A stretch of 32,285 bases of DNA, from the NCBI GenBank assembly GCA_049999805.1, contig JBNGIO010006328.1, positions 332,407-364,691 on the forward strand. The letters are read 5' to 3'. Positions 1-31,200 of this stretch are shown piece by piece. A model generated the notes under the pieces. That model was not told the origin of the DNA. It saw only the letters and a program-made list of their open reading frames with translations, and searched no databases. The DNA comes from Folioceros fuciformis. Lineage: Eukaryota. Made by a program: the position numbers and the translations under genes. Numbering within the stretch: the stretch's first letter is position 1; every line of letters begins with the position of its first letter.

Positions 1-2156
1 CAGTAGAGCTCTCCAACCAGCACTGTCATGTTTGTACGGCATAGACTGCAACATGGTTTCTGCTTCTTCCAGTTTGCCTGATCGGCTGAGAACGTCCACC
101 ATGCAAGTGTAGTGCTCTCCTCTTGGTGTGATTCCATGCAAGTCCACCATCTCCCGGAAGTACTGCCGAGCCTCCTCTACTAGGCCCACATGACTGCAAG
201 CAGCCAGAAGACAAGTAAAGGTTGCAGAGTCAGGCTCCACTCCCCTTTCTCGCATTTCCTCGAAAAAATGCAGAGCCATGTCACACCTGTTATGGTGGCC
301 ATACCCTTTGATGAGAGCAGTCCACGACACAACATTCTTTTTCGTCAATCTGTCAAATACTGTGCGGCCTTCATCCACACTACCACACTTGACATACATG
401 TCTACCAGAGCATTCCCGACCTTGGTCTCTGATTCCAGCTCCCTTTCCAGAATTTGGGCATGGATTTGCTTGCCCTCTTTGATGGCCCCTATGCTACCAC
501 ATGCTTTAAGAATGCCCACAAACGTTATGTCATTAGCAGGAGATGTGCCATCCTGCTCCATGCTTCTGTACAATTCAATGGCTTCCTGACCAAGACCCTG
601 TTGGGCGTATCCTGTGATCATGGCACTCCATGACACAACATCTTTCTTGTTCAATCTATCAAACACAGAGCGCGCCTCCTCTACACACCCACATTTAGAA
701 TACATGTCCACCAGGGCGTTTCCAATGAAGACATCTGATTCAAGCCTCCTTCTTTGGATCTGTGCATGGGCTAACTTTCCATCCTGTAAGGCTGCCATGC
801 TGCCACAAGATTTCAAAACGCTGACAAAAGTATATTTATCCGGTGTGATGTCATGCTGCTCCATGCTTACGAATAACTGGAGGGCTTCTTGACCCAAACC
901 ATGTTGGGAATAGCCTGCTATCATTGCATTCCAAGACACCATATCTCTGGTTGGCAACCGATCAAAGACTACACGGGCATCCTCCAGACTTCCACATTTG
1001 CAGTACATGTCCACCAACGTATTAGCGACATGCACATTAGATTCAGAGCCACTGTCAATCACATCAGCGTGAACCAGTCTCCCAGACTTCAAATCTGCTG
1101 CACTGGCACAAGCTTTGAGCACAGCAACATACACGAACTCATCTGACAAAACACATTTCCGCAACTGCTGATACACTGTCACCGCCTGCTTGGGCTGACC
1201 GTTTTCCACATACGCTGAGATTATTGACGTCCAGCAGAATGCATTCGGTTTAGGCAGTTTGCTGAAAACTCTGGCCGCCTCCAGCAGATCCCCGTGGAAG
1301 CCATACATGCGTATGATGCGATTTGCCAGAAACATATTCAAATCATGCCCAGTGCTTACAGCAAGAGCATGAACTTGCTTGCCGAGCACCAAATCCTTGT
1401 TTGCAATACACCCTTGCAGGAGACGATACAACATGTCAGAGCTGATGCAGCTTTCGTGATGTTCCATCCTGTCCAGAGCATGAAAAGCCTTCTGGAGCTC
1501 TCCCTCATCACATAGTCTGCTCCAGGCTTCAAATACAAACACAGCGTCGTCATGCTCTGCCACCCTGCCCCGTCCAGAGAATGGCCAGAAGTGTCATAAC
1601 CAGGACGTTTGTAGTGCCCACCTGGTATCCAAGCAAGCATCCAGAACTGAAAATGCAGACGTAACAAGGGAGGGGCTCAGTGCTAGATTCCCACAGCTTG
1701 AATAAATGTTGAAAAGTACCTGCCATGACGTTTCTCCGACTGATAGCTAGCATCTTGAGCCCAGCGGTGACGCCGTGAGTTCTGTGTGCAGGAGATTTTC
1801 ATGCGATAGTGTTCATCAACCAAACAAGCGGCTAAGGGACCACTTAACTTCCCATCAAAAAACCAGGAGTACCTTGTTGAGCACCAAAACTTTCCACCAC
1901 GACTCTTGTGCAACTGACCCATCTGCAAGCGAGCTGGGACGTCAACAAACGAGACCCAGAACTCTCCAAAGCTGTTTGAATCGAATGCATCCATCCACAC
2001 GGAAGCACAAATGGTACCGTGGCGTTTATCTGTGCTCCGCAGACTGGACAGATGCCTGTACCAATCCTCCAGAGGGCTGTAAGGGCCTGATCTGCCTCGC
2101 ACGATGCTGGACACAGAGGCATGTCGGCCGAACGCACGGATACGGCCACTCCTCAT
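1..2156 (-). CDS. PLS-class pentatricopeptide repeat (PPR) protein, probable organellar RNA-editing factor; 3' end lies beyond the window start
   Basis: A minus-strand frame is open from 1593 to position 1 (absent from the ORF track because it has no stop in the window). It encodes P-L-S repeats (FCWTSIISAYVENGQPKQAV, VYVAVLKACASAADLKSG) and terminal L2/S2/E1 motifs (DSATFTCLLAACSHVGLVEEARQYF, EHYTCMVDVLSRSGKLEEAETMLQSMP, SAGWRALL). The 5' end is uncertain: first in-frame ATG at 1467, or upstream exon(s) from ATG 2156 (MRSGRIRAFGRHASVSS, transit-peptide-like) joined by a phase-compatible GT-AG intron 1719-1565. Confidence 0.88.
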
Positions 2157-2430
2157 TCCGCTGGCCCAGTCTCAAGACTTCCAAACCGTTTGGACAGTTA
2201 ACCCTGACAGGCTTGCACACATCACAGGAGACATGCCATCTGCCTGCGTGGGGAGAGGAATCCACGAGCACAATGGGAGCTACAACTCTTACTCTTGAGG
2301 CTTCGGTGTTTTGCATGCGTGATTGCAAGAGTCCAGGTTCTGAGGTGTCTGACGCTGGGTAGTTGGAAGGATCAGCTGCCCGGAATCGGAGTTTGTGCTG
2401 GGTGGGCTACCACCCAGAGGGACAGGTGCC

Positions 2431-5400
2431 ATGGATCCGAGAAAAACAAAGCGAGAGCTTCTTGACTTGGAGGCAGCCATGAAAGAGGACCAGGAGGCCC
2501 TGCAAATGATGGACCAGAGAGAGCGGGCTATCAAGGAGAGGGAGGATGCTTTGCGGGAGCTGCAAGAGAGGGAGGCTGCCTTGAAGCAGAGGGAGGATGC
2601 GTTACAAGAGTTGCGGCAGAGGGAAGAGGCCTTGAAACAGAGGGAGGACGCTCTGCGGCAGCTTCGGGAAAGGGAGGAGGCTCTGAAGCAGAGGGAGGAT
2701 GCCGCCCTCCTTGAATTGAGACGCAGGGAGGCGGCTGTGAAACAAAGGGAGGACGAGTTAAGGGGCTGGGGAGCAACAACAGCAACCCGAGAAACAGGTC
2801 GGGCCGTCCCTGAGTTCGTGCCTCAGCAAATATCCTTTTCTCCTCCTCCGTGCACCAGTTCCTTTGGACAGAACAGTGGCTATGAGAAGATCTCTGAAGA
2901 AAGGTACCGGATTCGATCGTGTTGGAATATGCAGAGGTTGAGGTATTCGTACTGTAGTCATGTTATCTAGTGGTTGCTCTCTGCTACCTCAGAGAGAGCA
3001 TGGAGAGTGAGGACGACTACAATTATGCCTCTGACAGAACGGGAATGGAGGAGGAGGACTACACATCTGCTGATGGCAGTGATGAGGAATTTGATGAGGA
3101 AACCATGTACGACAACACCTCTGGGGGCGATGACTTCGAAACAGACGCCCCAACATCACCAGATGGTGAAGAGTCTGAAGAATTGGAGGAGGAATTTCAG
3201 AAGCCTCTCACAGCAGCACAGAGAAGATGGAGGAGGGCCTACTTCTTGATAAGGAAGCATCTGGTAGGCAACGTTCTCGTTTCTTCATCTTCCACAGCTT
3301 CCATGATTCAGGATCCACAGCCTCCCTACATTTGCAGACTATTACAAAACATGGCATGCGTACTACGGTTGGCACGGGAGCAGAAATGGAAGGTTTTGCT
3401 CTAGGCTTCGTGCCAGCGAAACATCCTGTACGGATGAAAGTCTTTGCTTTATTGTATCACCAGTATCCACACCCGGCAGTCGGCCAAACTTCATTTCATT
3501 CTCGTACATGTTCTAGCTTCTTGGGACTTGGGAGAACCTACTCTCCTTCACCTCTCATACGCAGACGCACTGAGTACTGTCTGGCCTTTCTCATATGCGC
3601 ACACCTCATAATACTGGTTATGAAGGCACAAGTGGAGGATATTGGGATGAAGCCCAACCGATCAGCACTAGACCTTGCAGACGCCGTGGTGACCTTTTTG
3701 TACACGTATGGACTTGTCGCCATCCTGGCCACGTGCTTGCCTAGCTTCAGTCCTGAAAAAGGTTGGCTGAACATACTCAACTCAACTCAAATGTTTCAGC
3801 GTTGAGATGCTTCTGCGTATTCTCTGCTTGGGCTTTGTTCGGGGTGAGCACACGTTTCTCAAGAACAGCTACAACAAGCTTGATTTTGTCATCGTCTTCG
3901 ACTCGTGGTAAGCTTCTGTGCTGCTTTTTCACTCGCATTGATTCCCGCTCCCGCAGATGATGCCATCAACGCCATGACTTCAACACCTTTCCTGTGTCTG
4001 CTAAATGTGTGAGGCTGCTAACTCTAGTCTCTCTTGTGTGACTCGTAGGATACATCTTTTAGTCAAACTGATCACCAAGAAGGACACATTTGCCCGAATC
4101 GCAGTATTTCGTGCTTTCCGAGTGCTGCCGATTCTGCGGTCATTCTCTTTCTTTGGAAATCTCTTAGTATGTGGTCAATGTTGCTCTCCCATGCAGTTGT
4201 TTTCTACCCTCACAACTTCCGCACACCAGAACAGACTTGATTCCACATGTGGCTTGTACCTCAGGCAATATTGGAAGCCAGCAGGCGTTGCATTGCTCCT
4301 CTCAATAATGTTATCCTCCTCACATTCTTCATTCTCTCCTTCTACGGCCTAGTGGGTGTTCAAACCTTTGGAGGGTCCCTGAGCCGCAGGTAGGATATCA
4401 CAACTTGCTCTCATGCTTCTACATTCCGGCTCTTGGGAAGTAAGAATGTTGTCCTCATAATAGCAAAGAGGAAAGTCCCTACAGCTCCTCATATATGAGA
4501 CTCGTCGTAAAGACCCACCACCATGTCTACATGAAAACCACCCCTACTTCATCCTTCACAAACTGAACTTCACAGGTGCGTAAACTTCTATCCCCTATCA
4601 AACACAACATTCCAAGAGCAGTTCCCTGAAAAATCATGTGGAATCGGGAAAGGTTACCAGTGTCCTAATCAACAAGCCTGCGAGGTAGGCCACGATCGTC
4701 TGTCCTTCCATTCATTCAATACGTCTTCTGTGCGATGTACATAATCAAAATCACCCTCCTCAAGCAACTTGATTGAATTGTTCTCACTCACATTCAAAGT
4801 TTCTGGAAAATCCAAATTGGGGAGCAATGAACTTCGACAGTTTCCCGTATGCCATTCTGACGATGTTCCAAGTAAGCAAGTTTCCAGATCTCACAACTTG
4901 CTAGTAGAAAAGACCAATATTCTATAAAAACAATTAATTTCCCACTCATTAAACAAACAGGTTATAACTTTTGCTGGGTGGAGTACTATAATGTACTCAG
5001 TGGAGGACGCTGAAACTCCAGCATCAGGTAAGTATATGCTCATATCATGAATACATTATTAAAAATATTTAATTTTTTAATATTAATAATAATTTTAATC
5101 GCAGCTGTCTACTTCATCACTTTATGTGTCTTTGGAAGCTACTTCCTAGTTAGTGTTTTCGTTGCAGCTATTAGTGGCGTTTTCTTAAGAGTTCGAAGAG
5201 AGCACCAGGTTAAGTGTTGATTGAACTAAAATCTCCTACAAACCCATTACATATACCACTTACAAAGCAAACATATCTTCATTCCACCAGATTCTCATCA
5301 AAAGACACCGCCAAGTAGCACAATCCTCTCTTCACAGCTCCAAAGTGATGGAGAAAGTTTACAAGGCAGTAGGATATGATGCCAGTGAAAGACCCTCATG

Positions 5401-8400
5401 GCAAGGACAACTTCACAGGAAATCAATCAAGGTTGTGAAAACAGCCCACAGACGAACCTTGAAGATGTTCCAATCCTTTTCCAAAGTAATGTTGGGTCTA
5501 AGAAAACCAAGTCTGGCAGACAATTTTCCAACATCTCTGCCTCTAGGACCCTTCTCCATTAACTACACTATGACAGAAAGAATCAAAGCTTTGGTGCTCA
5601 GTCCTACCTTCATATATGGCGCTCAGATTATGATCACCATGAATCTTTGCATACTTTGCTTATATCACGAAGGAATGTCCGACCAATTCCATGATTTATT
5701 ATGTATCCATAAAATCTCTTTCCTATCAATGCTAAGGGTCTCTTTTTGCTCTCTCCATGAGTCCCTTAATTAATTAAAAAAAACAGACGTTCTGGAAGCC
5801 ATAATGCTTTTAGCTTTCATCGTTGAGATGTGCTTACGATTCATGGCAGTAGGATTCAAGGAGTTCATTGATGACGGTATTCTTCCATTTATTCATCTTT
5901 TGTTTTTAGAGTTTTTTAAACTTTATTTCATAATCACGTTCCTAATATTTAATCCCGATATTTTGCTCCAGGTATGAACGTGTTTGATGTCGTTGTGATC
6001 GTATTATCCTGTGTTTCATTAGCAACTCGTTTATACCCAAATATCTCAGCAATCAGAGCTTTGCGTTGGTTTTACCGACCTGGAAAAAGTGATGTTACAA
6101 ATCGGTCTATCATGGTTTGCAAATCCAGTTCCTTTTCACTAATTTGTTGATGAGAAGAGTTCGTTATAATACAAGTTAGTAGAATAACATAGGGTTAAGA
6201 TGTCTTTAAAGCATCATCCTACATGCTTAAGGTTTGTTGTGCAGACTGATTGTATTAGGAGTTTGGGAGCCTTATCGAGCTTAGTATTCTTCTATTGCCT
6301 GATCATTTTTATTTATGCTATTATAAGCATGGAGCTTTGGGGTGGTGAGTTCTATGATTTTGATGATGGGTATCCGAGACAAAATTACGATACCATATTC
6401 CGAGCAATGCTCTCTTGGTTCATAATCACCACAGCAGAGAGCTGGCCATGGACTATGGGTAATGCAATGCGGCCTGGAGTAAGGAATAAGTAAATGACGC
6501 AACATAGATATAACATGTTACCTATTGAATGATGCTTTTGAGCTAAATGAATGTTAGGAATGTTGGTTAATGTGTGTTAGTTAGTTAGTGTTGTTCTGAA
6601 AGATGCAAAGACAATCATCCTTGCAGATGGACCGCACCAGTTTTGTTCGTGTTTTACTTTGGGTTCACCGTGTATGTCATTCTCAATTTGATCATAGCTA
6701 TTATCCTAGAGAAGAGTGAGATGACGGATCGGCAGAAGAAGCATATACAAAAGGTTTGACTGGTGCCCACCACTTTGTGGTAGTGAATATTGTTGTTTTT
6801 GTTTGGAATAATGAAGGAAAGTGTTCCTGCCATCCATGGCATGGCAGACCGAGCTCTTGAAAGCCATGAGGAAGAAACATGCACATTCGAGTTACACGAA
6901 CAGACGAGGGAGCTGGTTTGTGGATGCCATGTCCACAGCTCATGCCAGTGTGAAAGGGTTGGCCAGGACGATAAACTCGTCCATGAGAGTGAGCCAGATT
7001 TACATCCCAGGACGGTTGTCCATGCTGGTCTATCGTGGGCGAAAAGGGAGAGCGGAGACCAGGAGTCCTGGGTCTGGGAATGGGCTGGTTGGCGAATCCT
7101 CTCAAGCTTCCATGCCTGCATCTTCGTTGAACGAGCACACCCATCATGTCCATGGTCTGCCACATCATGCTAATCTGCGCCGCAGGTCCACCCAGCGAGG
7201 ATACCAGCTGCTTCACCAAACAGGCTTCCGAGGAAGCTTAGGGAGGGAGGGGAGTGTGAGGCCTACTGCATTGGAGAGCTCTGTGTTGGCTTTGATGGAG
7301 GAACAGGAGTCTGGGTACCAGCCAGAGCCCAGTGAGCCGATGCAGGATGTGGCTTGGCCTGGTGATGAGAGGAGTAGGACTCGGGCATCCTTTCGGCTTG
7401 CTGACTTCGAGGAATTTGAGGGCACTAGTGCTCGAACCAAGGCCCCCTGGTATATCACGGATTCGGCCCTGTTTCTGTTCAGGAGTGAGAACAAGTTTCG
7501 AGTGGTTTGTCAGAGGCTCATGGATAGCAAGTGGTATAGGAGATTCATATTCTTGATGGTCTTCGTGAGCATTGTTGCAACGGTTGAAACCAGTCCCCAG
7601 GGAAAGCCAGTTGTGGCTCCGATTGTCATTGACAGCGCCAACAAGGCTGTGTTAGTGGTTAGTGCTTCTGTTGGAGGAGGGTGTGCGTGATACCATTATG
7701 CTTCAGGGTGGACGTAGCATGTAAGTATCCCTGTGCCTTGCAGGTGTTTGGACTGGACATAGTGTGCAAAAGCATCAGCTATGGGTTCCTGCTCACTCCG
7801 GATGCGTATTTGGGAGATGCTTATAATTTCTTGGATCTGTTCAACTTTATCGTTGATCTGTTAGCAACTCTGCCTGGCTGGTCTCAGTACTGGCTGAGAG
7901 TGCTCAGGATGCTTGTTGCCTTCCGTCCTACAAGGCTTATTGTCCGAATTTCTGGTCTTCGGGATCTTGTTACGTCCTTGCTTTTCACTATTCCAGCCAT
8001 CGCATCGACTCTGGCCTTCAGTCTGACTATTTTTGCCATATTTGCAACAATAGGGCTGCAGCTCTTCAGGGGCCGGTTCAATGCTTGCAATGACGACTCA
8101 GTCAGTAATCGCCTCGAATGCGTGGGCGTGTTTGAGAATTCGTCAGGTAAGATTGTGGAACAGGATAGCTGATTAGCATCCCAGCTCTCATGTCATTATG
8201 TTGTTGGCTGATGCTGTGACTGCATCAGGAGTCCTTGCACCTCGTCTTTGGGAGACGCCTACCTATCATTTTGATGACATCGGCAATGCCATGCTGTCTC
8301 TTTATGTTTGCTCGACATTCGACAACTGGGTCTCCTATTTTTTGAATACAGCCATGGATATCCCCTCAGATCCGAATGACCAGCCGACAAGAAACCACAG

Positions 8401-10413
8401 CTATCTGAATGCCCTGTTTTTTGTAGCATTTGTCTTCATAGGGGGACACTTCGTTGTGCGTATGTTTGTGGGAGTGTTTGTGGATCAGTTTGGGATTGTG
8501 TCAGGCTCTAAGCTACTGACTGAGCGACAGAAGCTGTGGAGAGACAATAACCGGATAATTCAGAGGCTTTCACCAACTCGAATGCCAACCAAGCCTCGTG
8601 GAAAGCTCCGAAGCGTATGCTTTAGGATTGCTCATTCAGTGGGTTTTGGACGGCTGATTGTGCTCCTGGTCGTAGCTAATTTCGTCTGCCTAGCCAGCCA
8701 GTCATTTCATGCTAACATAACACCCAAGGTCTCAGCATTGGAGCACAGATTCATTCTAGTTGATGCAGCGTTTGTGTTCGTGTTTTCCCTGGAACTCGCC
8801 ATCAAGCTTCTTGGCTCTAAGGTAAGCCTTGTTTGCTGTTTCCTCAGATTGGTGCTACACGGGCAGGCATTCGTACTTCCTCCTAACATGTTTGTTGCAC
8901 CTGCTGTGGTATGACGGTGGGCAGTTCCATGACTGGTGCGTAAACTTCTGGAACTTCTATGAAGCCATCATAGTTATCGGGTCAGCATTTTGCATCTTTC
9001 CGGCCAGAGGAACCACCAGGCTCAAAGTGGGGCGTGTGTTTTTCCTTGTCCGAATATTTCGAATCATCCGATACATCCCTCCTCTCCACGCACTGGTGCA
9101 GACTGTGTTTGTGAGTTTGCCTTCAATGGTGTACATCATAAGTCTGCTCTTGATCATTCTTTTCGAGTTCGCTGGAGTTGGAGTCCAGATGTTCTCCCAT
9201 GTCAGGGATGGAGCTTGCATCGGTCCCCACATGAACTTCAGGACGTTCGTAAATGCATTTGTGGTTGTGTTCCAGGTTCGGTTTCTCCTCCTGCCTAACT
9301 CCTCATCGTCTTGCTCTGGTATTCTACCTCGAAGTCGGATGTGACAACCTCAGTACCTGCCTTTGTCCCGTCACTCCTAACAAACCGTTTGCTGCCAGGT
9401 TGCCACAGCTGATAACTGGTCTTGCATCATGAACGATTGTCGAGTACAGTACCCTTCGTGTGCCAAGAGCAGTAATCTGACTCAAGACGAATGCGGTTTG
9501 CCAACAGGAGCTCTCGTCTACTTTATTTTCCTGGTGGCCTCAACTACATGGATCTGCACCAACTTGTTTGTGGCTGAGATCCTGGATACCATCACCTTCG
9601 GATTGTTGAATGAAGAGGCCATGATCACCCCCAGCCATCTGCTCGACTTCCAGACGCTGTGGGCTCACAGTGAATTCGACCCGAAGTATGATCTTCACCC
9701 AAAAACATGGGTCTTGCTTGCATTTGCCCTTTCCGTATCCGTTCTTTTATGCCATCTTCTCGGGGTTCCCTGCGCAGGAGGAAGGGGTTCATCGGGCTCC
9801 ACAAACTTCGAACTTTCTTGAATTGCCTGGGCCTGCCCTTGGGCCGAAGGCCAAATGCTCCTGCCAAGTGGTGAGATTGATGTCACCTGATCCTCCATCG
9901 TTCAAACCTGGTTCAGTATGGATGCTCAGAGACGCTTCCTGGTATCAGGTATACGAGGATCGAGTACGAGGTCATGAGTTTTCACCAACGGGGCAAGGGC
10001 GTCCCATTCAAGCAGTTGCTGGAAACACTCACCCTCTACAAGATCGGGGCACAGGTATTGAACACCGCAAATGCAACGATCTAAAGCCACGCTCATCAGG
10101 ACAGACGCTTGTTAGAATACACTGAGGGGCTGGCAATTTAACGCAGGGCCTGGAGCTTGCCTTGCGGATAGAAAGGGAGAAGCAGATACAGCACGTGTAC
10201 AGGCATGGAGCTGCCACGAAAATTCAAGCAGCGATCAGAGGGTTCATTGTGAGGGCCAGGTTGAAGAAGTGGAAGGAGTCCAATGTGGAAATTGATCCTG
10301 CATCCCTGGATGCTGGGCAAAAATTAGATCCCGATTCTGAGTTCACTTTCAGGATAAAGAACATGCTGGATCTCAAACGGGAGATTTTCATGCTCAAGAC
10401 GTTGTGGTTCTAA
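2431..10413 (+). CDS. Four-domain (4x6TM) voltage-gated cation channel alpha subunit, Cav/Nav superfamily, ~1,879 aa, 24 exons
   Basis: Hand-spliced GT-AG exons that keep frame: 2431-2903, 2993-3263, 3338-3462, 3565-3705, 3800-3907, 4049-4166, 4265-4389, 4576-4684, 4800-4871, 4961-5027, 5105-5208, 5291-5702, 5787-5876, 5972-6114, 6245-6489, 6627-6753, 6848-7657, 7744-8146, 8229-8821, 8925-9275, 9399-9685, 9778-9870, 9949-10054, 10147-10413 (5640 nt). Four S4 segments (FRAFRVLPILR; IRALRWFYR; LRVLRMLVAFRPTRL; KVGRVFFLVRIFRIIR), four pore loops (ITFAGW, TTAESW, STFDNW, ATADNW), an EF-hand-like FDPKRKGFI and an IQ motif (AATKIQAAIRGFIVR). Confidence 0.92.
2533..2760 (+). repeat. Coding tandem repeat (~51 nt / 17 aa, ~4.5 copies) forming an N-terminal coiled coil of the channel
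   Basis: IKEREDALRELQEREAA / LKQREDALQELRQREEA / LKQREDALRQLREREEA / LKQREDAALLELRRREAA / VKQREDEL. Confidence 0.85.
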
Positions 10414-10579
10414 TTTGTGAGCTCTGAAAATGGTTTCCCCGTGAAGATGAAGTCGCTTGCTTGAACCAGTGAAGACAGTCTGTCTTGCAACTTACTCATT
10501 CACCAGGGTGCCGGAGGAACCCGCCAGCCCACGGTGGATACTGTAGGCAGACTTTGGCCTACTCACATCCCTGGCTGCT

Positions 10580-11212
10580 ATGGCCGCTGCCCAGTTGCTT
10601 CCCGGACGAACCCTTCATATCCCTGCGCCAGTCCTTCGTCGGCTACCTCCTCTTCCTCGGTTACGTCCGGTGGGTGGGAGGATTAGGCGCCTTGAGGGAC
10701 CCTGCACGGTCTTCGTGAGGGCCTGCAGCGATGCCGGGAACCCGTCCCCCAGCGCCGTACCGGGGACGGGATTCGAGGACCCCAACAAGGAGCTTGCTAC
10801 ACCCGCCTGGAAGAAGTGGCCGAGGGATGCGGCGGACGTGAGGGCGCAGGTGGCCAAGCTTGGTCTTGCTGCGGTCCTGGCTTACGGCCTCTTTGATGGT
10901 GTCACCTACACCACCTTCTTTTTCCTGGCTTTCCTGGGCTACGAGAAGAGCACGGGGAACAACCCGGCTGCCAACATCCAGGCCCTGCTTGGCATCGTCA
11001 TCACCATGTGGGCCGGCAACAATGTGACCAGACCCTTCCGGGTAGCTGGAGCAGCTGCCATCGCTCCTGTTGTTGACAGGTTCTTGAAGAAAGTGCAGAA
11101 GGTGCTGAAGCTTCCAAACCAAGCTCTCGCTTTCATGCTGGTGGTGGCTTCTTTCGCCTCCGTCTGCTTCACGCTCGTTGGCCTTCTAATCCTGTCACGG
11201 TGGGGAAGATGA
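10580..11212 (+). CDS. Plant membrane protein, probably plastid-targeted (tentatively DUF1279/FAM210-like), 210 aa, intronless
   Basis: Clean ORF with an Arg/Pro-rich transit-peptide-like N-terminus, then hydrophobic blocks AKLGLAAVLAYGLFDGVTYTTFFFLAFLGY and MWAGNNVTRPFRVAGAAAIAP resembling a conserved plant family recalled from memory. The family name is tentative. Confidence 0.8.
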   Translation: MAAAQLLPGRTLHIPAPVLRRLPPLPRLRPVGGRIRRLEGPCTVFVRACSDAGNPSPSAVPGTGFEDPNKELATPAWKKWPRDAADVRAQVAKLGLAAVLAYGLFDGVTYTTFFFLAFLGYEKSTGNNPAANIQALLGIVITMWAGNNVTRPFRVAGAAAIAPVVDRFLKKVQKVLKLPNQALAFMLVVASFASVCFTLVGLLILSRWGR

Positions 11213-11845: not shown

Positions 11846-14234
11846 CTACGACTCGGGATCTATTTTTCCACAGAAGAGCTTCTCGCAGGATTTCGGTGTC
11901 AACTGCTCCACACACGCAGGGCAATCGTCCCTCACACTTCTAAAAGAGTAGTAGGCAAAAAGTTCCTCAGGAAGGCCCTCCCCCTCAGCGGATAGGGAGT
12001 CCTGGGTTTCAGAAACTTCGATGTGTAGCCTCTGACGGCCAAGTTGCCTGAGCATGTGCCCAGCTGCATATGCAGGGGCACCTTCCACCCAGAAGTACTT
12101 CAGATGCGGCCCTGCTTGCGTGAAGGCCTTGGCCACCCCCTCAGCTGTGAAAGGACAGTGCCGAAACTCGAGTCGTTTGAGACTGCGGCAGCCCCGAAGC
12201 AGATCCTTCAACCCATCGTCGTCGTCCCCAGTGCAAACGAGGCAAATCCATTTCAATGTGGACCCACCGTTCTCCCCGATGTGGCGCAAACCGACATTCG
12301 TCAAACTGCCAGCCCTCATCGCCAGCGCCAGCTTAGTGAGCGACCTACACCTTTGCATAATATACAGAATGCCCTCGTCTATGGGAAGAAGCTGCGAGTG
12401 GTCCACCTTTTGGACTATGATCAAGCGCAAGTCGTTCAACTTCCTGCAGTTCTCCCCCAAAGCCTTCAACGCATCGTTGGACAATTTGGCAGCATAGACA
12501 GTGAGAAACTTCAGCTCGGGACACCCTCTTGCCAGCGCTGTTATGCCCTCCTGCGTGACCTCGTTCTCAGCATCCTCGTCTACGTCCAACCTCTCCACTC
12601 TAAGCTTCTTCAAGGACTTGCAATGCACAGCAATCACTCGAAGTCCGGCATCCCCAATCATGGGCCTCACCTGGTAAGAAGCAAATACGTCCCGTCAGTC
12701 AAACTCCAAATGAACCACACCACACCACACCACCATTCTGGACATCCTTCCTCACCTCGAGCGCCTCCAGGTGCTTGCAATGGGCAATAAGCTCCATAAC
12801 AGTCTCCCGACTGAGATCAGCCAACTTCAAGTCCAGGTTCCGGAGCGTCCCACTCAACGGCAGCAGCATGGGCAGATGGAAATCCGCAGCATCGTACAAG
12901 CCGGAGAGCGACACGAGCCTGTCAGGCAACAGCCGCCCAAACCTCCCGACCTCGTCTTCCGGAAACAAGCCCGTCCCAAGCTCCGTCAGCGCAGGAGCTT
13001 TAGCCAAAACCTCCCAACACGCGTCCTGCTGCTCCCACACCCCCAACCTCAGGCTCCTCAAACCAAGACAAGACCGAACAAGCAACCCCAAGTCCTCCAA
13101 CTCCGGCCCCTTGGCGTCGGGTTCATCATCGTCCCCCACCCCTACCGGGTCAGGATCCGGCAGCAGCAGCTCCTCCAGNNNNNNNNNNNNNNNNNNNNNN
13201 NNNNNNNNNNNNNNNNNNNNNNNNNNNNNNNNNNNNNNNNNNNNNNNNNNNNNNNNNNNNNNNNNNNNNNNNNNNNNNCCCCCCGCATGTCGTCCATCCG
13301 GCTGCTGGCCATGTCCAACGTCCTGAGCGACCTGCCACGCGTGCGCCACTCCAGCCCCCGTCACCCAGAGCAGCGAAGCAACTCAATTCCTTACCAACTA
13401 ACTCCGAGCAACCCAATTCCAGCCCGACTCCGGGCAACCCAGAATCCGACCGCCAATTCCCAACCCAACCCCGGGCACCGAAATTCCAAGCAACCCTCTT
13501 CCAAGCCAAGTCCAAGCAGCTCAATCCCAAACCCAACCCCGGGCTCCGGAATTCCAAGCAACCCACTTCTAAGCCAAGTGCAAGCGGCTCAATCCCAAGC
13601 CACTCCACTCCAATCCCATCCTGGACCCGACGGAAGCGTACCTGCAGGAGCGGGCGAGCATGAGGAGGCCGTGCGCGGAGAAGCCATCGCACTTATCCAG
13701 CACGAGGCGCTGGAGGGCGCGGCCGCATCCGGCCGCCAGGGTCTCCAAATCCGCGTCGCTCACGACAGCCCGCTTGAGGTAGAGCGACTCGAGGGCGGGG
13801 TACTTGGCAGCGATAGCGCGGATCCAATCCCCGGCCCGGCCGCCCCAGTCCGCTGCCAGCTGCTGGAACTCCATGGCGCGCGGGCGACACTTGAGCTTGA
13901 TGCGCTTGAGGCTGTGGAACCTCTGAGTGAGCCGGTGCGGGTACGCCGCATAGCAGTTGGCCACGGTGACCTCGGCCCGCACCCGGCCGTCCACGAAGCA
14001 CCAGTGCGAGCAAACCTCCGAGGCCGCGTGCAGCGCCGAGACGTCCGATTCCAGGTAGCGGAAGATGGTCTCCAGCAGCGGGCCGCGCAGGACCTGTTCC
14101 ACGGCCCCCTCCTCCTCGATCTCCTGCGGCACCGAGCGCAGCAGCCGCTTGGAACTGGCCATGGCAGCTGCAGGCCTCTGCTGCGGGCAAGGCTGGGGAC
14201 TCGGCTTGAAGCCCCGACACGCTCGCCTCATCAT
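11846..14234 (-). CDS. COI1: COI1-like F-box/LRR protein (jasmonate/oxylipin co-receptor family), 3 exons, exon 2 interrupted by an assembly gap
   Basis: Exons ~14234 (start uncertain: ATGs at 14456, 14234/14231, 14162)-13642, 13331-12756 and 12670-11846. Motifs VTVANCYAAYPHRLTQRF, LKCRPRAMEF..DWGG, LVLDKCDGFS, IGDAGLRVIAVHCKSLKKLRVER and the C-terminal LFAYYSFRSVRDDCP match COI1 (AYYSLAGQRTDCP) better than TIR1 (IYRTVAGPR). The two intron positions are those typical of COI1/TIR1 genes. Confidence 0.85.
13179..13278. other. Assembly gap (100 N)
   Basis: Run of 100 N inside exon 2 of the COI1-like gene. Confidence 1.
13462..13597. repeat. 68-bp tandem duplication in intron 1 of the COI1-like gene
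   Basis: aacccaaccccgggcaccgaaattccaagcaaccc...ctcaatccca at 13462 and a near-identical copy at 13530. Confidence 0.8.
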
Positions 14235-15570
14235 CTCCGCCCGCACCAGCTCCTCTTCCTGCTTCTGCTTCTGCTTCGGCTTCTGCTTCCTCTCCTCCTC
14301 GTCAGCATCGCACCTGCTCGGCTCCCGCCACCCGCATCCAGAGCCGCGCCCAGGCCCGCGAAGGACCAGGAGAGGAAGGAGACGAGGAGGCGAGGAGGCA
14401 AGGAGGCAAAGAGGGAAGTGAGGACCTTCCGTCGTCGTTGCAGAACCTGCCGGCATTCGTCGCCTTCTGGCTCTGTTTCTTCTCCTCGTCTTCCATCCAC
14501 CACGCGTCAGGCCGGGCCAGGCACTGTCGGATAGCCTTTACTCACGCAGATCCACCCCCCCCCGTCCTTCTCATAATCTCTCCCACAACGACTCGTCCGA
14601 TTAGATACATACTACGTAAACGACATAGCATTCTTTGGCGCAAGCTGCAAACAATGGCCTCCACCAGTACCACTTGGCTTTCCTCCCGCCCGAGCACTCT
14701 CTCGCTCTTACGCTGCGCCTCGTCTCGATTCGCGCAAACATTAAGTACCAAACATATCAGTAGTAAATTTAGTCAGTAAATAAACAAATGAAGTAAACAA
14801 AACTCTGTCGGGGTTATTTTTTTACTGGCTCCATAAGGTGAGGAGATATGTATCTCGTTTTCGTGTTCCGTGAGACAGCAGTCCACAGGAGTCCACGTAT
14901 GTCTATTATTTTGTGACATGTCGGGGAGTTAGATGCAGTATAAAAGTCAGGTTACAAGAAAAGAGGAGAGCGAACACGGAAACCCCAGGGCAGTAGGCAA
15001 GACGACAACACCCAGATTTATAATCGCTAGACCCTGCAAGGTGCAGCTGCTGCAACAGCGACCCGGGGGGACCAGATTGGTTCCCGCCGGGATGGAATAT
15101 GGAACCAACTCACTCGAAGTTCCGCTAGCAAGAAAGCTGGAAACGAATTACGAGATATTTGGCTTTCTTGTCGGTCGGGTCAGGGATGCGTTGCTGGCGA
15201 GAATCAGAGTTAGCATCTACCACGAATCCACGACTCCCCCGCCGACACCGCACTACTCACATGCTAAACTGTACATAGTACTGACAACGGAAGGCCACTC
15301 ACTCACCAGAGGGTTACGGAAACGATGACGACTCCCCATACTCCTTCGGACACACCTAGGATGAAGGATATTACTGAGCTTCCTTGGACCTGCTACTTGC
15401 CCGGTACTGGACTACCAATGAACACAGTTCTTGGAGCTCCCTCGCTTCCGTGTCGTACCACCACCAGTCACGGGCGGAACACTAGGCCGACACTCCTGTC
15501 AGCGTCGTGTGCAGCTCTACACAATCCTGAAGGGTGGAAGGAGGGCGACCTGCCTGACAGCCTGCGTGAA

Positions 15571-24542: not shown

Positions 24543-25605
24543 TTAAGCGCCGGGGACGAAGTTGGTGGCGTAGGCCCAGGCATTGTTGACCGTGGGGTCG
24601 GCCAAGTGATCAGACAGGTTCTCAATGGGACCCTTGCCGGTGACAATGGCCTGGAAGTAGAAGCCGAACATCGAGAACATCGCCAGTCTGCCATTCTTGA
24701 GCTCTTTCACCTTCAACTCAGCGAAGGTGTCGGGGTCGTCAGCCAGACCCAAGGGGTCGAATGAGCCGCCGGGGTACAGGGGGTCAGTCACCTCCCCCAA
24801 CGGTCCGCCGGCCACACGGTAGGCCTCGACGGCTCCCATAAGGATCACCTGGGAGGCCCAGATTGCAAGAATGCTCTGGGCGTGGATGAGGCTTGGGTTG
24901 CCGAGGTAGTCCAGGCCTCCCTCAGAGAAGATCTGCGAGCCGGCCTTGAACCACACCGACTCCCCGAAGGTCACGCCGTTCTTGGCCAGCAGCTCGGGTG
25001 TGACGCACCCGAGAGTTCCAAGCATGGCCCAGCGGGCATGGATCACCTCCAGCTCCCGGTTCTTGGCGAAGGTCTCGGGGTCTGCGGACAAGCCCGCACT
25101 GTCCCAGCCGTAGTCGCCGGGGAATTCTCCCTTCAGGTATGAGGGAGTGTCCGCGGAGAAGGGGCCGAGCCACTTGGGACGGTCAGGGCCGTACCTGCAT
25201 GCAACGACATCAAACAATCTAAGATCGGCAAGCCATGACATCTCCTCAACGTCCACAATTCAATCCTCCTTCGACACACAAGATATCCGGTGCGCATCCT
25301 CGATATCCTACTCCAACTTCGTGCGCACCGCTAGACAACAATCAAGATCCGAGAGACGAGGAATCCACTACACATTCTAAACTCCTCACAAGTTCAATCT
25401 GCACTGCATTACGCACAATCCGGATCAAGATTTGAAAAAATTGACGGACAGAACGATACCAGATGCTGGATGGAGTGGATGCGCTCTTCCTCATCTGAAG
25501 CTTGGACTCGCTGCTGCCTGCAGCGCTGAGGATCTCGCTGCGCTGGCGGAAGACGCTCTGCCCGGCCAGGGCAGCGCTGGAGGCGCATGCAGTGGCGGCC
25601 GCCAT
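24543..25605 (-). CDS. LHCB2: Major LHCII chlorophyll a/b-binding protein, Lhcb2-like, 2 exons
   Basis: Exon 1 25605-25460 (transit peptide, then [12 protein letters not shown]), intron 25459-25195, exon 2 25194-24543 ([13 protein letters not shown]...[13 protein letters not shown]...[14 protein letters not shown]...[14 protein letters not shown]). The intron within SIW/YG is the Lhcb2-type position. Confidence 0.95.
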
Positions 25606-26630: not shown

Positions 26631-26772
26631 AGAGTTTGGAAGTTGCAATAGTAGTAGTAGTTTAGAAGTTGCAATAGTANNNNNNNNNNAGTTTGGAAGT
26701 TGCAATAGTAGTAGTAGTTTAGAAGTTGCAATAGTAGTAGTAGTTTGGAAGTTGCAATAGTAGTAGTAGTAG
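26631..26772. repeat. 26-bp minisatellite (gtttggaagttgcaatagtagtagta) with an internal 10-N assembly gap at 26680-26689
   Basis: About 5 visible copies around the gap; the true length is unknown. Confidence 0.9.
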
Positions 26773-28224
26773 CTCAATTTGATCATAAAAGTTCTTTTTT
26801 CATGAGCTTTCTTGTCCAATCAATGCTGCCCTCAAAAGCACCCTTTGCAAGAAGTTCAAGTGCTCTAGTTTGAATTACGCCCCCCTCACCATTGGTTGGG
26901 CAAGCATAGCATTGATAGCTTCTCCCTCATCCCTCAACATTCTTAAGAGTTCTTCTCGCCCAAGTTCCTTCTTGATATAAGGTTTGCTTTTCAAACAATA
27001 CTTGAGAAACAAGAAGCTATTTGGGAGTTATTTGGGAACTAGGCCTTGAGTGCAGAACTAGTCTAACTTGGGGAGGTTTATATGTACTTGCTATGCTGCA
27101 GTCTTATTCTAATAGTTATTATATTTAATAAATTTAAAATTTTAAAAAGTTATAAATATAAACGTTGAACCTTTGTTAAAAAAATATTTCGGCGAAGACC
27201 TGTTGAATCAGCCCTCGGGTACGGTACTCGCGTGACAGGGAATCGGGATGGCCGTTTTTGCCGGATTGCAAGCAGTTAAGCGAGTCGACCTCCGTGCAAT
27301 GAATGACACTCGGCAGATGGACGACGTCACACAATTTGCCACCACCGGTAAACCGTTTGATGGACATCCAATGGGAGACGGCAACTGGGTATCGCCATCT
27401 CCCATTATTGGAATGAGCTTCTCTTCATAGCCTTCGTAGTTTCCTTTGGGTCGGGTGCGCCAGGCAACGCAAAGAGTGCAATACCTAAGCGACGCGCGTG
27501 TAGCCAAGGCAGCAAGCCACCTCATGCGGCTCCACCCCTGAAAGAAATAAGATTGACATCATGTAAGTCAATGGCCTGCGTATCAGATATTAAATTGATG
27601 ACAACAGATACTACACTCAAAGTTAGCCGAAAAGCTGTATTAAACTGATGCCGGCAGGTACTACGCTCAGAGTTAGCCAGAAGATCGAGAGAAGTACGAT
27701 TCCTCTGCGTTCTGCACTGAGGCCTTCTCTCGTTCCGGAGGCGCCGTATGCTCCTCACACAATATGGGTTATATGTCCGTGCACTTGAAACAAACAGCAA
27801 CACTCGGCCGTCTTCTGGAACTTTCCTTCTTCGTCTGCGGCTTCTTGTGCTCCAAGTTGAACAGCCATGGTTTGATTCCGTTCGAGAAGCGGGTTGAGAG
27901 CACGGTTGCCACCTCCTGTGAATGCCTCCACAGAGTTTGTTCGAAAGTTGGAACCCGTTCTCGTTGGACCTTTGTTGTGAACATAAATTCAGCTGTGTTT
28001 CCCAGATGCGGATTTAGATCAGGAGAAGCCACCCCTGGTTGCAGGCACGATGTTCTGAGCGCCCGGATAACACATGTGTGACGTGACCCACAAGAGGGCC
28101 TCGGAGAAAGGCATGGAGGCGGTGCGTGAAAGTGTCGAATTGCCTTCGCAACCTGAGAGTAACTGGAGTAAATGACCTGGTCCTACCTTGCATCCCACTG
28201 ACTGACCCAGCGTGCAATGGCTGT

Positions 28225-31200
28225 ATGGAGTGTGTTAAGAGGTCCTGTGCACCTGAATTTAAAGAGCCTACCTTGGTGGAGGACCGTGGCGAGAAAGCCG
28301 GATCCTCCAAGAGAATGTCCGGCTGGAGACCGATATTCCAGCGACGGTTGTGGGTTCGGCCCCACGAGGGCGTTCGGCTGAATGAGTTGTGCGAGTCAGC
28401 AGGAGCGGATGTGGCGGTCCCTGCTGTTGGGAGGGAGATGTGTGAATCCGTGAGACAGCTATGTCATGAGGGCCGTGCGCACGAGGCTGTTGAGGCTTTA
28501 GGAGTTTTGGTGGAGACAGAATTTTGTGTATCCAAAGCTCTCCTGTATGCTGTTCTGAAGCAATGTGTGGCCGAGAAGGATCTTGTTCTGGGTCGCCGCA
28601 TGCATGCCTTGATGGTCAAACAGGGGTATCAATCGGACACGTTCTTGGGCACCCATGTGCTGCGGATGTATTGTTCCCATGGCAGGTTGCAAGACGCGAT
28701 GGATGTGCTGGGATTGGTAGGGAGACCAGATGCCTTCATGTGGTGTGCCATAATTTCTGCGCATGTTAGACATGGGCAAAACAAGGTCGCTGTAGAGCTC
28801 TATCATCGGATGCGCAGTTCAAATGTGATGGCAGACGGTCATGTGTTTGCGACAGCCCTTCAGGCTTGTGCAAGGGGATGGGACTTGAGATCTGGGCAGC
28901 TGGTGCATGCGGATGTGTTGGCCAACGGTCTTGATACTGATTCGTTCATTTGTACTTGCTTGGTGGACATGTATGCGAAGTGTGGTAGCTTGCAGCATGC
29001 CCAGGTTCTGTTTGATGGACTTGAGCAAAAGAGTGTGGTGACGTGGAGTACCTTGATAGCAGGCTATTCTCAGCATGGCAAGGGACAGGAAGCCCTTCGT
29101 CTTTACAAGGCTATGCAAGATGACGGCATGGTGACACCTGATTCCGTGACATTTGTGTGCCTTCTGCAAGCATGTGCAAGTGTGGGCTCCCCAGCTTTGG
29201 AGAAGGGGAGGGAGCTGCACGCACAAGTACGAGGGCAAGGACTTGAAACTGATTTGTTTGTAGCAAACAGTCTGGTGAACATGTACTCAAAGTGTGGCAG
29301 CTTGCAAGAGGCTCGGGGTGTTTTTGACGCACTTGTTCAAAAGGATGTCGTGACATGGAACGCCATGGTAGCAGCATATTCTCAGCAGGGCATGGCCCTC
29401 GAAGCCTTTCATCTGTACACAGTCATGCAAGAGACATGCGTCACCCTAACTAATTCTGTAACATTTGTGTGTCTGCTGCAAGCATGTGCAAGTCTCGGCT
29501 TGAAAGGCTTGGGGATGGGACAGCAGCTTCATGCACAAATCAGAGAACGAAGACTTGATTCTGACGGGTTAGTTGCCAACGGTTTGGTACACATGTATGC
29601 AAATTGTGGCAGCTTGGAAGCCGCTCGGCGAGTTTTTGACGCATTCGGTGACAGAGATGTGGTAAAGTGGAATACCATGATAGCAGGATATTCCCAGCAG
29701 GGCATGGGCCAGGAAGCCCTTCATCTCTACAGTGTTATGCAAGAAGAAGGCATGGTAGCACCCGATCCCGTGACATTTGTGTCTCTCCTTCAGGCATGTG
29801 CAAGCATGGGCCGCCCAGCTTTGGAGACGGGGAAGCACCTTCATGCACAAATTAAAGAGCAAGGACACGAAACTGTTGCAGCTGTGGGCAATAGTTTGGT
29901 GAATATGTATGCAAAGTGTGGCAGCTTGCAAGATGCCCGCAGAGTGTTTGATGGACTCGTTCACAAGAATGTGGTGACGTGGAATGCTATGTTAGCAGGC
30001 TACTCCCAGCAGGGCATGGGCCACGAAGCCCTTGAACTGTACATGGCTATGCAGGACGAAGGGATCATGACACCCGATTCCGTGACATTTGTATCTCTTC
30101 TGCAGGCGTGTGCGAGCATGGGCCACTCAGGTTTGGAGATTGGGAAGCAGCTCCATGCGAAAATCCGAGAAGGTGGACATGAAACTGACATGCCTGTAGC
30201 CAACAGTGTGGTGAACATGTACGCAAAATGCGGGAGCGTTGAGGACGCTGAGAGAGTGTTTAATGGACTAAGTCACAAGAATGTGGTGACCTGGAATGCC
30301 ATGATAGCGGGGTGTTCCCAGCAGGGCAAGGGTGAGGAAGCCCTTGACCTTTATAGCATCATGCAAGAAGAGGGCCTGGTGCAACCCAATGCTGTGACAT
30401 TTGTGTGCCTCCTGCAGTCGTGTGCAAGTGTGGGGACCCAAGCTTTGGAGAAGGGGAAGCAGCTTCATGAGGAAATCAGAGAACAAGGACATGAGGCTGA
30501 TGTGTTTGTAGCCAACAGCTTGGTAAACATGTATGCCAAGTGTGGCAGCTTAGAAGACGCGCAGAGGGTGTTCGATGAGCTTAGTGAAAAGGATGTGGTG
30601 ACTTGGACTGCTCTAATCGCAGGGTATTCTCAACAAGGACGGGGCCAGGAAGCCCTTGATGTATACAGTGCTATGCAAGACGCCGGCACTGCTGCACCCA
30701 GTTCTCTGACATTTGTGCACCTCCTGCAGGCATGTGCAACTGTGGGCACGCCAGCATTAGAGATTGGGAAGCAGCTTCATGTGCAGATTAGGGAACAGGG
30801 ATGCCAAGCTGAGATGTTTGTGGCCAACAGTTTGGTGAACATGTATGCAAAATGTGGGAGCTTAGACGACGCACAGCGTGTGTTTGACGGACTTAGTGAG
30901 AAAGACGTTGTGACTTGGACCGCCCTAATTTCAGGGTACTTCCAGCAGGGCATGGGGCAGGAAGCCCTCCGCCTCTACGGCACCATGCAAGAAATCGGCA
31001 TCGCCGTACCAAACAGTGTGACATTTGTGTGCCTTCTCCATGCATGTGCGAATGTTGCAGCGCTGCATCTCGGCAGGCAGCTACACGCACAGATCGAAGA
31101 ACAAGGACTCCACTTGGATCCATTCCTAGCCTGCAGTCTGATAAACATGTACGGGAAGACTGGGAGCCTGGTCGAGGCGCAGGAATTATTTGATGCGTTG

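Follow-up and report, generated by a model that had tools for sequence, protein, structure and literature searches.

Can a four-domain voltage-gated channel lose one of the acidic residues of its selectivity filter and still work as a cation channel and, if so, what would it conduct? This question is raised by a gene on the forward strand of a 32,285-nucleotide stretch of DNA from Folioceros fuciformis (contig JBNGIO010006328.1, positions 332,407 to 364,691), which is eukaryotic in character, has short introns, and is referred to hereafter as the window. The gene encodes a four-domain channel whose selectivity ring, i.e., the filter residue contributed by each of the four pore loops, reads Ala-Glu-Asp-Asp (A-E-D-D). 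The answer proposed here, which we hold with moderate confidence, is that the gene makes a working, probably sperm-flagellar cation channel, that its ring has lost the Glu of domain I, and that it passes divalent cations while binding Ca2+ less tightly.

The channel gene was modelled by tblastn with three lycophyte proteins (P0003, P0005, and P0014) combined with splice signals. The model has 23 coding exons, where the initial annotation had counted 24, and 22 introns of 74–186 nt, all of the GT..AG type; the junction of which it is least certain is the exon 13 donor, GTTTGC, chosen because the resulting length agrees with Selaginella. The coding sequence of 5160 nt starts with the ATG at 3000 and holds 1719 codons, with the terminal TAA (10411–10413) as its single stop, and the intact reading frame claimed at the outset is thereby borne out. 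Likewise, the protein is the four-domain voltage-gated channel that it was first taken for: four repeats, basic residues in the S4 helices, and four pore loops are all present, voltage gating itself being predicted from these features, and the alignment extends across all four six-helix repeats of homologues of 1591–2039 aa. Pfam Ion_trans matches exons of domains II, III, and IV, and the IQ profile matches the last exon.

The ring residue stands two positions before a conserved Trp in each repeat (FAGW, AESW, FDNW, and ADNW; Trp in 4/4), and all four codons and all four pore motifs were found where the initial annotation had placed them (Table 1). Regarding the decisive exon, that of the domain I filter (4961–5027), its acceptor (AAACAG) and donor (GTAAGT) are canonical, and it is in phase with the neighbouring exons. 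Ala359, its ring residue, aligns gap-free to the domain I Glu of all relatives. When the 22 residues of this exon are compared with solved structures, ITFAGW falls on ITMEGW (residues 289–294) of the Cav1.1 chain 6jpa_A and Ala359 on E292, in alignments with weak E-values of 1.6–2.3, as expected for so short a query. An alternative domain I pore exon was considered and ruled out, as the introns on either side, of 89 and 77 nt, are too short to hold one, and three homologues used as tblastn queries hit a single domain I pore in the window. The Ala codon, GCT, differs at two positions from both Glu codons, GAA and GAG, and is therefore not a single-base slip; the replacement of Glu by Ala would have needed at least two nucleotide changes, one possible route leading via Asp (GAT). 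RNA editing was dropped as the origin of this codon, since editing in plants is organellar.

Over its entire length the channel can be aligned with the four-domain channels of Diphasiastrum, Selaginella, Ceratopteris, Marchantia, Sphagnum, and Ceratodon, and its identity to the Diphasiastrum, Selaginella, Marchantia, and Ceratopteris proteins is 38–45% across almost the whole protein. Among 726 candidates, a word-indexed search for longer proteins yielded 17 matches, with a best identity of 51%; 12 of the 17 carry land-plant names, namely Diphasiastrum, Sphagnum, six Selaginella models, two from Ceratodon, and Gb_09885, which we take to be Ginkgo. An exhaustive search of representative proteins returned 2943 at E ≤ 0.001 and 20 at E ≤ 1e-30, among which the sole close match is P0020, a 230-residue fragment that is 83% identical over the domain III–IV exon and does not include domain I. 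Profile searching added two Ceratopteris and two further Diphasiastrum proteins, and a profile search seeded with the domain I exons of the window found nothing above 51% identity. Finally, cluster look-ups brought in Marchantia Mp_2g23520 and one Riccia protein as relatives, along with Pycnococcus/Pseudoscourfieldia and Prasinoderma as the nearest non-plant sequences, and a metagenome scan yielded 17 loci of 22–42% identity, which were left unused.

A quick tree (IQ-TREE, LG+G4, 31 rows, 1539 columns, SH-aLRT support) was computed from rows chosen among several hundred proteins. It includes all full or near-full land-plant sequences, three partial ones (Ginkgo, Riccia, and the second Ceratopteris gene), six of the nearest sequences that are unnamed or algal, Cav3 and Cch1 channels with names, and a few others; P0008, P0010, P0011, P0012, and P0180 were left out, as were the short fragments P0020, P0021, P0024, and P0026. 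The 14 land-plant rows, the window protein included, form one clade with 100% support, and the algal and animal channels lie outside it. Within the clade there is a three-way polytomy of the window protein, liverworts plus mosses (89%), and vascular plants (99%). The gene is best explained as an intact copy of the voltage-gated four-domain cation channel passed to land plants from green algae, and the lineage it comes from is, as judged by sequence, separate from the mosses, liverworts, lycophytes, ferns, and Ginkgo that were sampled.

How unusual the Ala is can be read from one full alignment of 22 rows, from which alone, and not from BLAST mapping, the ring counts were taken. The domain I position is Glu in 10/10 land-plant rows that cover it, in 6/6 algal sister rows, and in 2/2 Cav3 rows. 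The domain II position is Glu in the algal sister and Cav3 rows and in the land plants, except for Asp in two Ceratopteris rows; the domain III position is Asp in all three groups; and the domain IV position is Asp in the land plants and Cav3 rows and Glu in the algal sister rows. The ring of the land-plant clade is accordingly E-E-D-D (E-D-D-D in Ceratopteris) and that of the prasinophyte-like sister sequences E-E-D-E, and the window gene departs from the ring of its clade in domain I only, agreeing with it in domains II–IV. As a side observation, the two Ceratopteris richardii proteins with the domain II Asp are P0181 and P0182, and in the former the domain III pore Trp, too, is replaced, by Val (STFDNV).

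The A-E-D-D ring occurs in no sampled relative in the P-loop alignment, so, as far as the clade was sampled, the possibility that it might be the usual state there does not hold. The initial annotation had listed the canonical rings of animal channels, in agreement with PMC6259924 and Table 1 of PMC10983803, and had likened A-E-D-D to a rotated DEEA. This likeness has to be given up: because the gene lies inside an E-E-D-D clade with E-E-D-E sister algae, its ring is a Cav3-like EEDD minus the charge of domain I, and what it appears to share with Nav2/CaV4 is the count of charges only. By BLAST mapping, Ala in domain I is also present in channels of Porphyridium (A-E-S-D), [Myrmecia] bisecta (A-E-N-D), and one diplonemid, all of which are far from the plant clade in the tree.

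What a ring of this kind would conduct may be judged by analogy with the mutagenesis of animal channels. One caution is that in Cav3.1 the replacement of E by D in domains I and II affects gating (10.1101/626069). In Cav1.2, single Ala substitutions in the EEEE ring shift the Ca2+ block of the Li+ current about 10–50-fold, and the AAAA ring shifts it about 1000-fold (PMC2233694), while channels with the DEEA ring, which has three negative charges, carry Ca2+ and Ba2+ (PMC10983803). From the Cav1.2 mutants and the permeation of the DEEA channels one would expect retained divalent permeation, weaker Ca2+ binding, and more monovalent current, and a Ca2+-permeable channel of relaxed selectivity is plausible. 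In the mechanism that we propose, Ala would take the place of the domain I Glu in the Glu-Glu-Asp-Asp ring of the clade, in a channel that, from its predicted features, would still open upon depolarisation and be regulated by calmodulin. Divalent cations would still pass the ring of three carboxylates, and Ca2+ would be bound about one order of magnitude less tightly, with a weaker Ca2+ block of the monovalent current and a more mixed Ca2+/monovalent permeability as the expected consequence.

The proposed site of action is the flagellate sperm, where the channel would control the flagellar beat. In the green lineage, Chlamydomonas CAV2 is a flagellar voltage-dependent Ca2+ channel that controls waveform. 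The named land-plant matches all come from groups with flagellate sperm (Diphasiastrum, Selaginella, Sphagnum, Ceratodon, Marchantia, Riccia, Ceratopteris, and Gb_09885), and no flowering-plant or conifer homologue was among the matches, although conifer proteins are present in the database. Because of the analogy with CAV2 and this taxonomic pattern of gene retention, a role in the sperm flagellum seems the most likely one. The legend of Fig. 6 in PMC4685582 reports a putative Nav/Cav in Physcomitrella and a loss of channels that tracks the loss of flagella.

The shift in permeability could have gone further than this. It is conceivable, though we consider it unlikely, that an adaptive and lineage-wide change has remodelled the domain I/II side of the pore (E359A, Q696T, and W698G) in the sperm channel of one early-diverging land-plant lineage, which would have produced a mainly monovalent (Na+/K+) or non-selective depolarising channel. 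The domain I Ala co-occurs with the unique changes two and four residues past the domain II tryptophan, and Ala in domain I has also been seen in the Porphyridium, [Myrmecia] bisecta, and diplonemid channels named above. Moreover, the position immediately following the domain II Glu, at which the Cav3 rows carry Asp, is occupied by Ser here and by Ser or Asn in the remaining land-plant rows, and by this comparison the plant clade as a whole may select for Ca2+ less strongly than its ring implies. The Asp that has been neutralised experimentally in Cav3 is said to be one of domain II. Neutralising an Asp at such a position is reported to make Cav3 permeable to Na+ (PMC10120453). However, three carboxylates are left in the ring, the equally charged DEEA rings are permeable to Ca2+ and Ba2+ (PMC10983803), and the lineage-wide part of this explanation is drawn from one sequence of the lineage. 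If true, it would describe an independent escape from Ca2+ selectivity on the plant side, in which a charge was removed, and not a lysine added as in animals.

A little less likely again is that constraint on the gene has been relaxed, that it is heading for loss or for a non-conducting role, and that the Ala is damage to the pore. Here the transcript evidence has to be considered, and it weighs, together with some of the pore changes, against the working channel that we favour. Contigs of one public run, X1, were placed on positions 2300–10700; that this run is of RNA is a guess, its record making no mention of RNA. Where they cover the gene, the contigs have zero base differences from the window, and they join exactly at six modelled junctions (3462/3565, 8146/8229, 8821/8925, 9275/9399, 9685/9778, and 9870/9949), two of which, 9275/9399 and 9685/9778, flank the domain IV pore exon. 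Cover is absent from 3842 to 6919, so exons 4–15, including the domain I and II pore exons, are without a contig, and it is on genome sequence and homology that the domain I pore exon stands. The contigs cover ten modelled introns, of which six are spliced at the predicted sites and three are retained (intron 1, 3264–3337; intron 3, 3706–3799; and intron 22, 10055–10146); in place of the tenth there is a joint from 7720 to 8054.

At this last site the contig passes the modelled donor at 7657, uses the strong GTAAGT donor at 7721, and joins 8054, keeping 63 intronic bases with an in-frame TGA (7688–7690) and skipping 333 bases, i.e., most of exon 17 with domain III S2–S5. Since the skipped part is 45–51% identical to homologues and matches Ion_trans with 65.6 bits, a working mRNA must include it, and the contig appears to represent unproductive splicing. 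The poorly processed contigs, with their three retained introns and a premature stop in the only transcripts at hand, fit a decaying gene; they could also mean that the gene is weakly or non-productively expressed in the X1 sample.

Signs of decay in the protein itself were sought at 175 columns where the nine other full-length land-plant rows do not vary. The window protein differs at 15 of them (8.6%), and three of these unique changes are in the pore: E359A, and Q696T with W698G just past the domain II filter. Departures of the pore loops from the clade consensus, which is weighted towards lycophytes, number 5/14 columns in domain I, 4/16 in domain II, 1/13 in domain III, and 0/13 in domain IV, a clustering in domains I and II that both adaptation and relaxed constraint would fit. 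In addition, CaV2 filter mutants traffic poorly and have reduced current (PMC6899504), and by analogy a loss of function in the A-E-D-D channel is possible.

Against decay, however, stand the frame itself, open over 1719 codons, 23 exons, and 22 canonical introns, and the rate at which the protein has changed. The terminal branch of the window protein is 0.57, against a median of 0.63, and the same invariant-column test gives 1.8–12.6% for the other land-plant rows, so in both respects the window protein is no outlier among the land-plant sequences. Its pore loops deviate at 10/56 columns in total, and those of Marchantia (13/56), Ceratopteris (10/52), and Ceratodon (10/38) deviate as much. 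Basic residues are kept in the S4 of all four domains (R, K, R, R, R, and R in domain IV, by alignment with relatives), as are the III–IV linker SGSKLLTERQKLWRD, domain I S6, the IQ motif, and the pore tryptophans. The evidence for decay is slight and, apart from the pore changes, the protein is by all these comparisons normally conserved.

Very improbable, finally, is that the Ala comes from a wrong assembly or base call, from a rare allele, or from mis-modelling of the exon: the domain I exon lacks read-level or RNA support and two N runs occur elsewhere in the window (13179–13278 and 26680–26689), but GCT is two positions away from GAA and GAG, the neighbouring residues are in frame and conserved (VIT.F.GWS) between canonical splice sites, the window has a single domain I pore, and the X1 contigs have no base differences where they cover the gene.

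Statements that land plants are without four-domain Cav/Nav channels are found in papers from 2018 to 2025 (PMC6259924, PMC5824947, PMC6509283, PMC11085791, and PMC12455266). Bryophytes, lycophytes, ferns, and Ginkgo nonetheless carry a conserved four-domain clade with a T-type-like EEDD ring. In the literature searched we found no description of the ring of this land-plant clade, though the supplements of the 2018 surveys, which lay outside the search, might list sequences; neither did we find a paper with the locus names Mp2g23520, Mapoly0069s0001, or KP509_11G019800, a functional study of any member of the clade, or a mention of an ‘AEDD’ ring in the channel literature searched. The gene described here belongs, as an ordinary member, to a clade that is already annotated though little studied; it is not a new kind of protein, and the Ala is its novel part. 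It amounts to a natural experiment in which one pore charge was lost from an otherwise conserved channel, and the contrast between Ala and Glu could show how much a plant channel owes to the domain I carboxylate. It also raises the question of which ions drive the flagellar responses of plant sperm.

Table 1. Coordinates of the channel gene in the window, its exons and its pore residues, with the evidence for each
Feature	Position	Strand	Evidence
Whole coding region	3000..10413	+	tblastn with P0003, P0005, P0014; splice sites
Exon 1, start codon and acidic N-terminus	3000..3263	+	gene model; following intron retained in X1 contig
Exon 2	3338..3462	+	gene model; joint 3462/3565 present in contig
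Exon 3, domain I S1	3565..3705	+	tblastn, gene model, contig
Exon 4, domain I S2–S3	3800..3907	+	tblastn, gene model
Exon 5, domain I S4 (ARIAVFRAFRVLPILR)	4049..4166	+	tblastn, gene model, alignment with relatives
Exon 6, domain I S5	4265..4389	+	tblastn, gene model
Exon 7, domain I extracellular turret, Cys-rich	4576..4684	+	gene model
Exon 8, domain I descending pore helix (NFDSFPYAILTMFQ)	4800..4871	+	sequence, tblastn, gene model
Exon 9, domain I filter VITFAGW	4961..5027	+	gene model, alignment with relatives, Cav1.1 structure match
Ala359 (GCT), ring position of domain I, loop VITFAGW	4973..4975	+	residue-to-coordinate mapping, alignment
Exon 10, domain I S6	5105..5208	+	tblastn, gene model, alignment with relatives
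Exon 11, I–II linker and domain II S1	5291..5702	+	tblastn, gene model
Exon 12, domain II S2	5787..5876	+	tblastn, gene model
Exon 13, domain II S3–S4	5972..6114	+	tblastn, gene model; donor GTTTGC
Exon 14, domain II S5 and pore TTAESW	6245..6489	+	tblastn; Pfam Ion_trans 48.8 bits
Glu691 (GAG), ring position of domain II, loop TTAESW	6437..6439	+	residue-to-coordinate mapping, alignment
Thr696 and Gly698, ascending limb of domain II pore	6452..6460	+	Gln and Trp in all nine other land-plant rows
Exon 15, domain II S6	6627..6753	+	tblastn, gene model
Exon 16, II–III linker and domain III S1	6848..7657	+	tblastn; contig continues to 7720, unspliced at 7657
Exon 17, domain III S2–S5	7744..8146	+	Pfam Ion_trans 65.6 bits; 45–51% identity to homologues
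Exon 18, domain III pore STFDNW, S6, III–IV linker, domain IV S1	8229..8821	+	homology; both joints in contig
Asp1186 (GAC), ring position of domain III, loop STFDNW	8321..8323	+	residue-to-coordinate mapping, alignment
Exon 19, domain IV S2–S5, S4 RLKVGRVFFLVRIFRIIRY	8925..9275	+	Pfam Ion_trans 69.7 bits; joints in contig
Exon 20, domain IV pore ATADNW and S6	9399..9685	+	gene model, alignment; joints in contig
Asp1474 (GAT), ring position of domain IV, loop ATADNW	9411..9413	+	residue-to-coordinate mapping, alignment
Exon 21, proximal C-terminus	9778..9870	+	tblastn, gene model, contig
Exon 22, proximal C-terminus	9949..10054	+	tblastn, gene model; next intron retained in contig
Exon 23, IQ calmodulin-binding motif (ATKIQAAIRGFIVRARLKK) and stop	10147..10413	+	Pfam IQ PF00612, 24 bits against a cut-off of 20.3; kept in relatives

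The channel gene has open reading frames close to it on both sides. The one just upstream of its ATG (2353–2970, forward strand) encodes a Glu/Arg/Leu-rich, coiled-coil-like product without a Pfam match, contains a 51-nt tandem repeat (2533–2702, 3.3 copies), and is covered by an X1 contig; it may be either a separate gene or part of the channel leader. The one right after the channel gene (10547–11212, forward strand) encodes 221 residues with a transit-peptide-like start and hydrophobic stretches, again without a Pfam match, and a long X1 contig extends about 2.5 kb past 10700, into or beyond the next gene. Further away, a TIR1/AFB/COI1-type F-box leucine-rich-repeat gene (11846–14537, reverse strand; Transp_inhibit, 49.7 bits) is split by the N run at 13179–13278, and LHCB, a light-harvesting chlorophyll a/b-binding protein, is encoded by an intron-free stretch at 24543–25259 (reverse strand; Chloroa_b-bind, 171 bits). 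Two pentatricopeptide-repeat (PPR) genes of the PLS class, at 1–1593 (reverse strand) and 28087–31800 (forward strand), are intron-free where seen. The larger one (>1150 aa) has an E motif, and its 1156-aa protein has best identities of at most 54%, with best matches spread over ferns, lycophytes, a conifer, liverworts, and mosses and no close annotated species among them. The PPR, F-box, and LHCB genes identify the source as a land plant, and a hornwort, as a guess, would agree with these observations.

Among known systems, the closest are the land-plant relatives, i.e., Marchantia polymorpha Mp_2g23520, Diphasiastrum O6H91_02G023500, Ceratopteris KP509_11G019800, and the Selaginella moellendorffii models named ‘L-type’, ‘T-type’, or ‘sodium channel-like’, which fall in one clade with 100% support. 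They share with the window gene the architecture, the ring residues of domains II–IV, the III–IV linker, and the IQ motif, and they differ from it in having Glu instead of Ala in domain I and Gln and Trp instead of Thr and Gly in the domain II pore. Animal Cav3 (T-type) channels have EEDD, which is the ancestral ring of the plant clade, where the window gene has A-E-D-D, and insect T-type channels are the best named non-plant matches of the plant profile, at about 540–555 bits. The three Cav3 rows nevertheless form their own clade (100% support) on the far side of the tree, with the plant clade outside it; they have Asp after the domain II Glu where Ser is found here, and the IQ motif of the window gene does not align in them.

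As for solved structures, Cav1.1 is the best match, at 1.8e-25 for the 201-residue product of the domain III–IV exon (exon 18, domain III pore to domain IV S1), followed by Cav3.1 (2.3e-22), Nav1.5 (4e-20), and NALCN (1.6e-15), so that the solved Nav structures match more weakly than Cav1. Even so, Cav1.1 and Cav1.2 are at most about 30% identical, have another ring (EEEE), and are not the nearest clade. The Nav2/DSC1/honeybee CaV4 channels, whose DEEA ring likewise combines three acids with one Ala, are permeable to Ca2+ and Ba2+ (PMC10983803), but their Ala is in domain IV and their acids are D-E-E, whereas here the Ala is in domain I, the acids are E-D-D, and domain IV has Asp. Compared by ring, Nav2 having no row in the tree, this likeness arose independently from a different starting ring. 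The channels of Porphyridium purpureum (KAA8495059) and [Myrmecia] bisecta (KAK9823801) have domain I Ala and domain II Glu as here, yet they have Ser or Asn and not Asp in domain III and are distant in the tree; their Ala arose independently of that in the window gene. Chlamydomonas CAV2, by comparison, is a green-lineage four-domain channel in control of flagellar waveform, and it is in function only that the window gene is likened to it.

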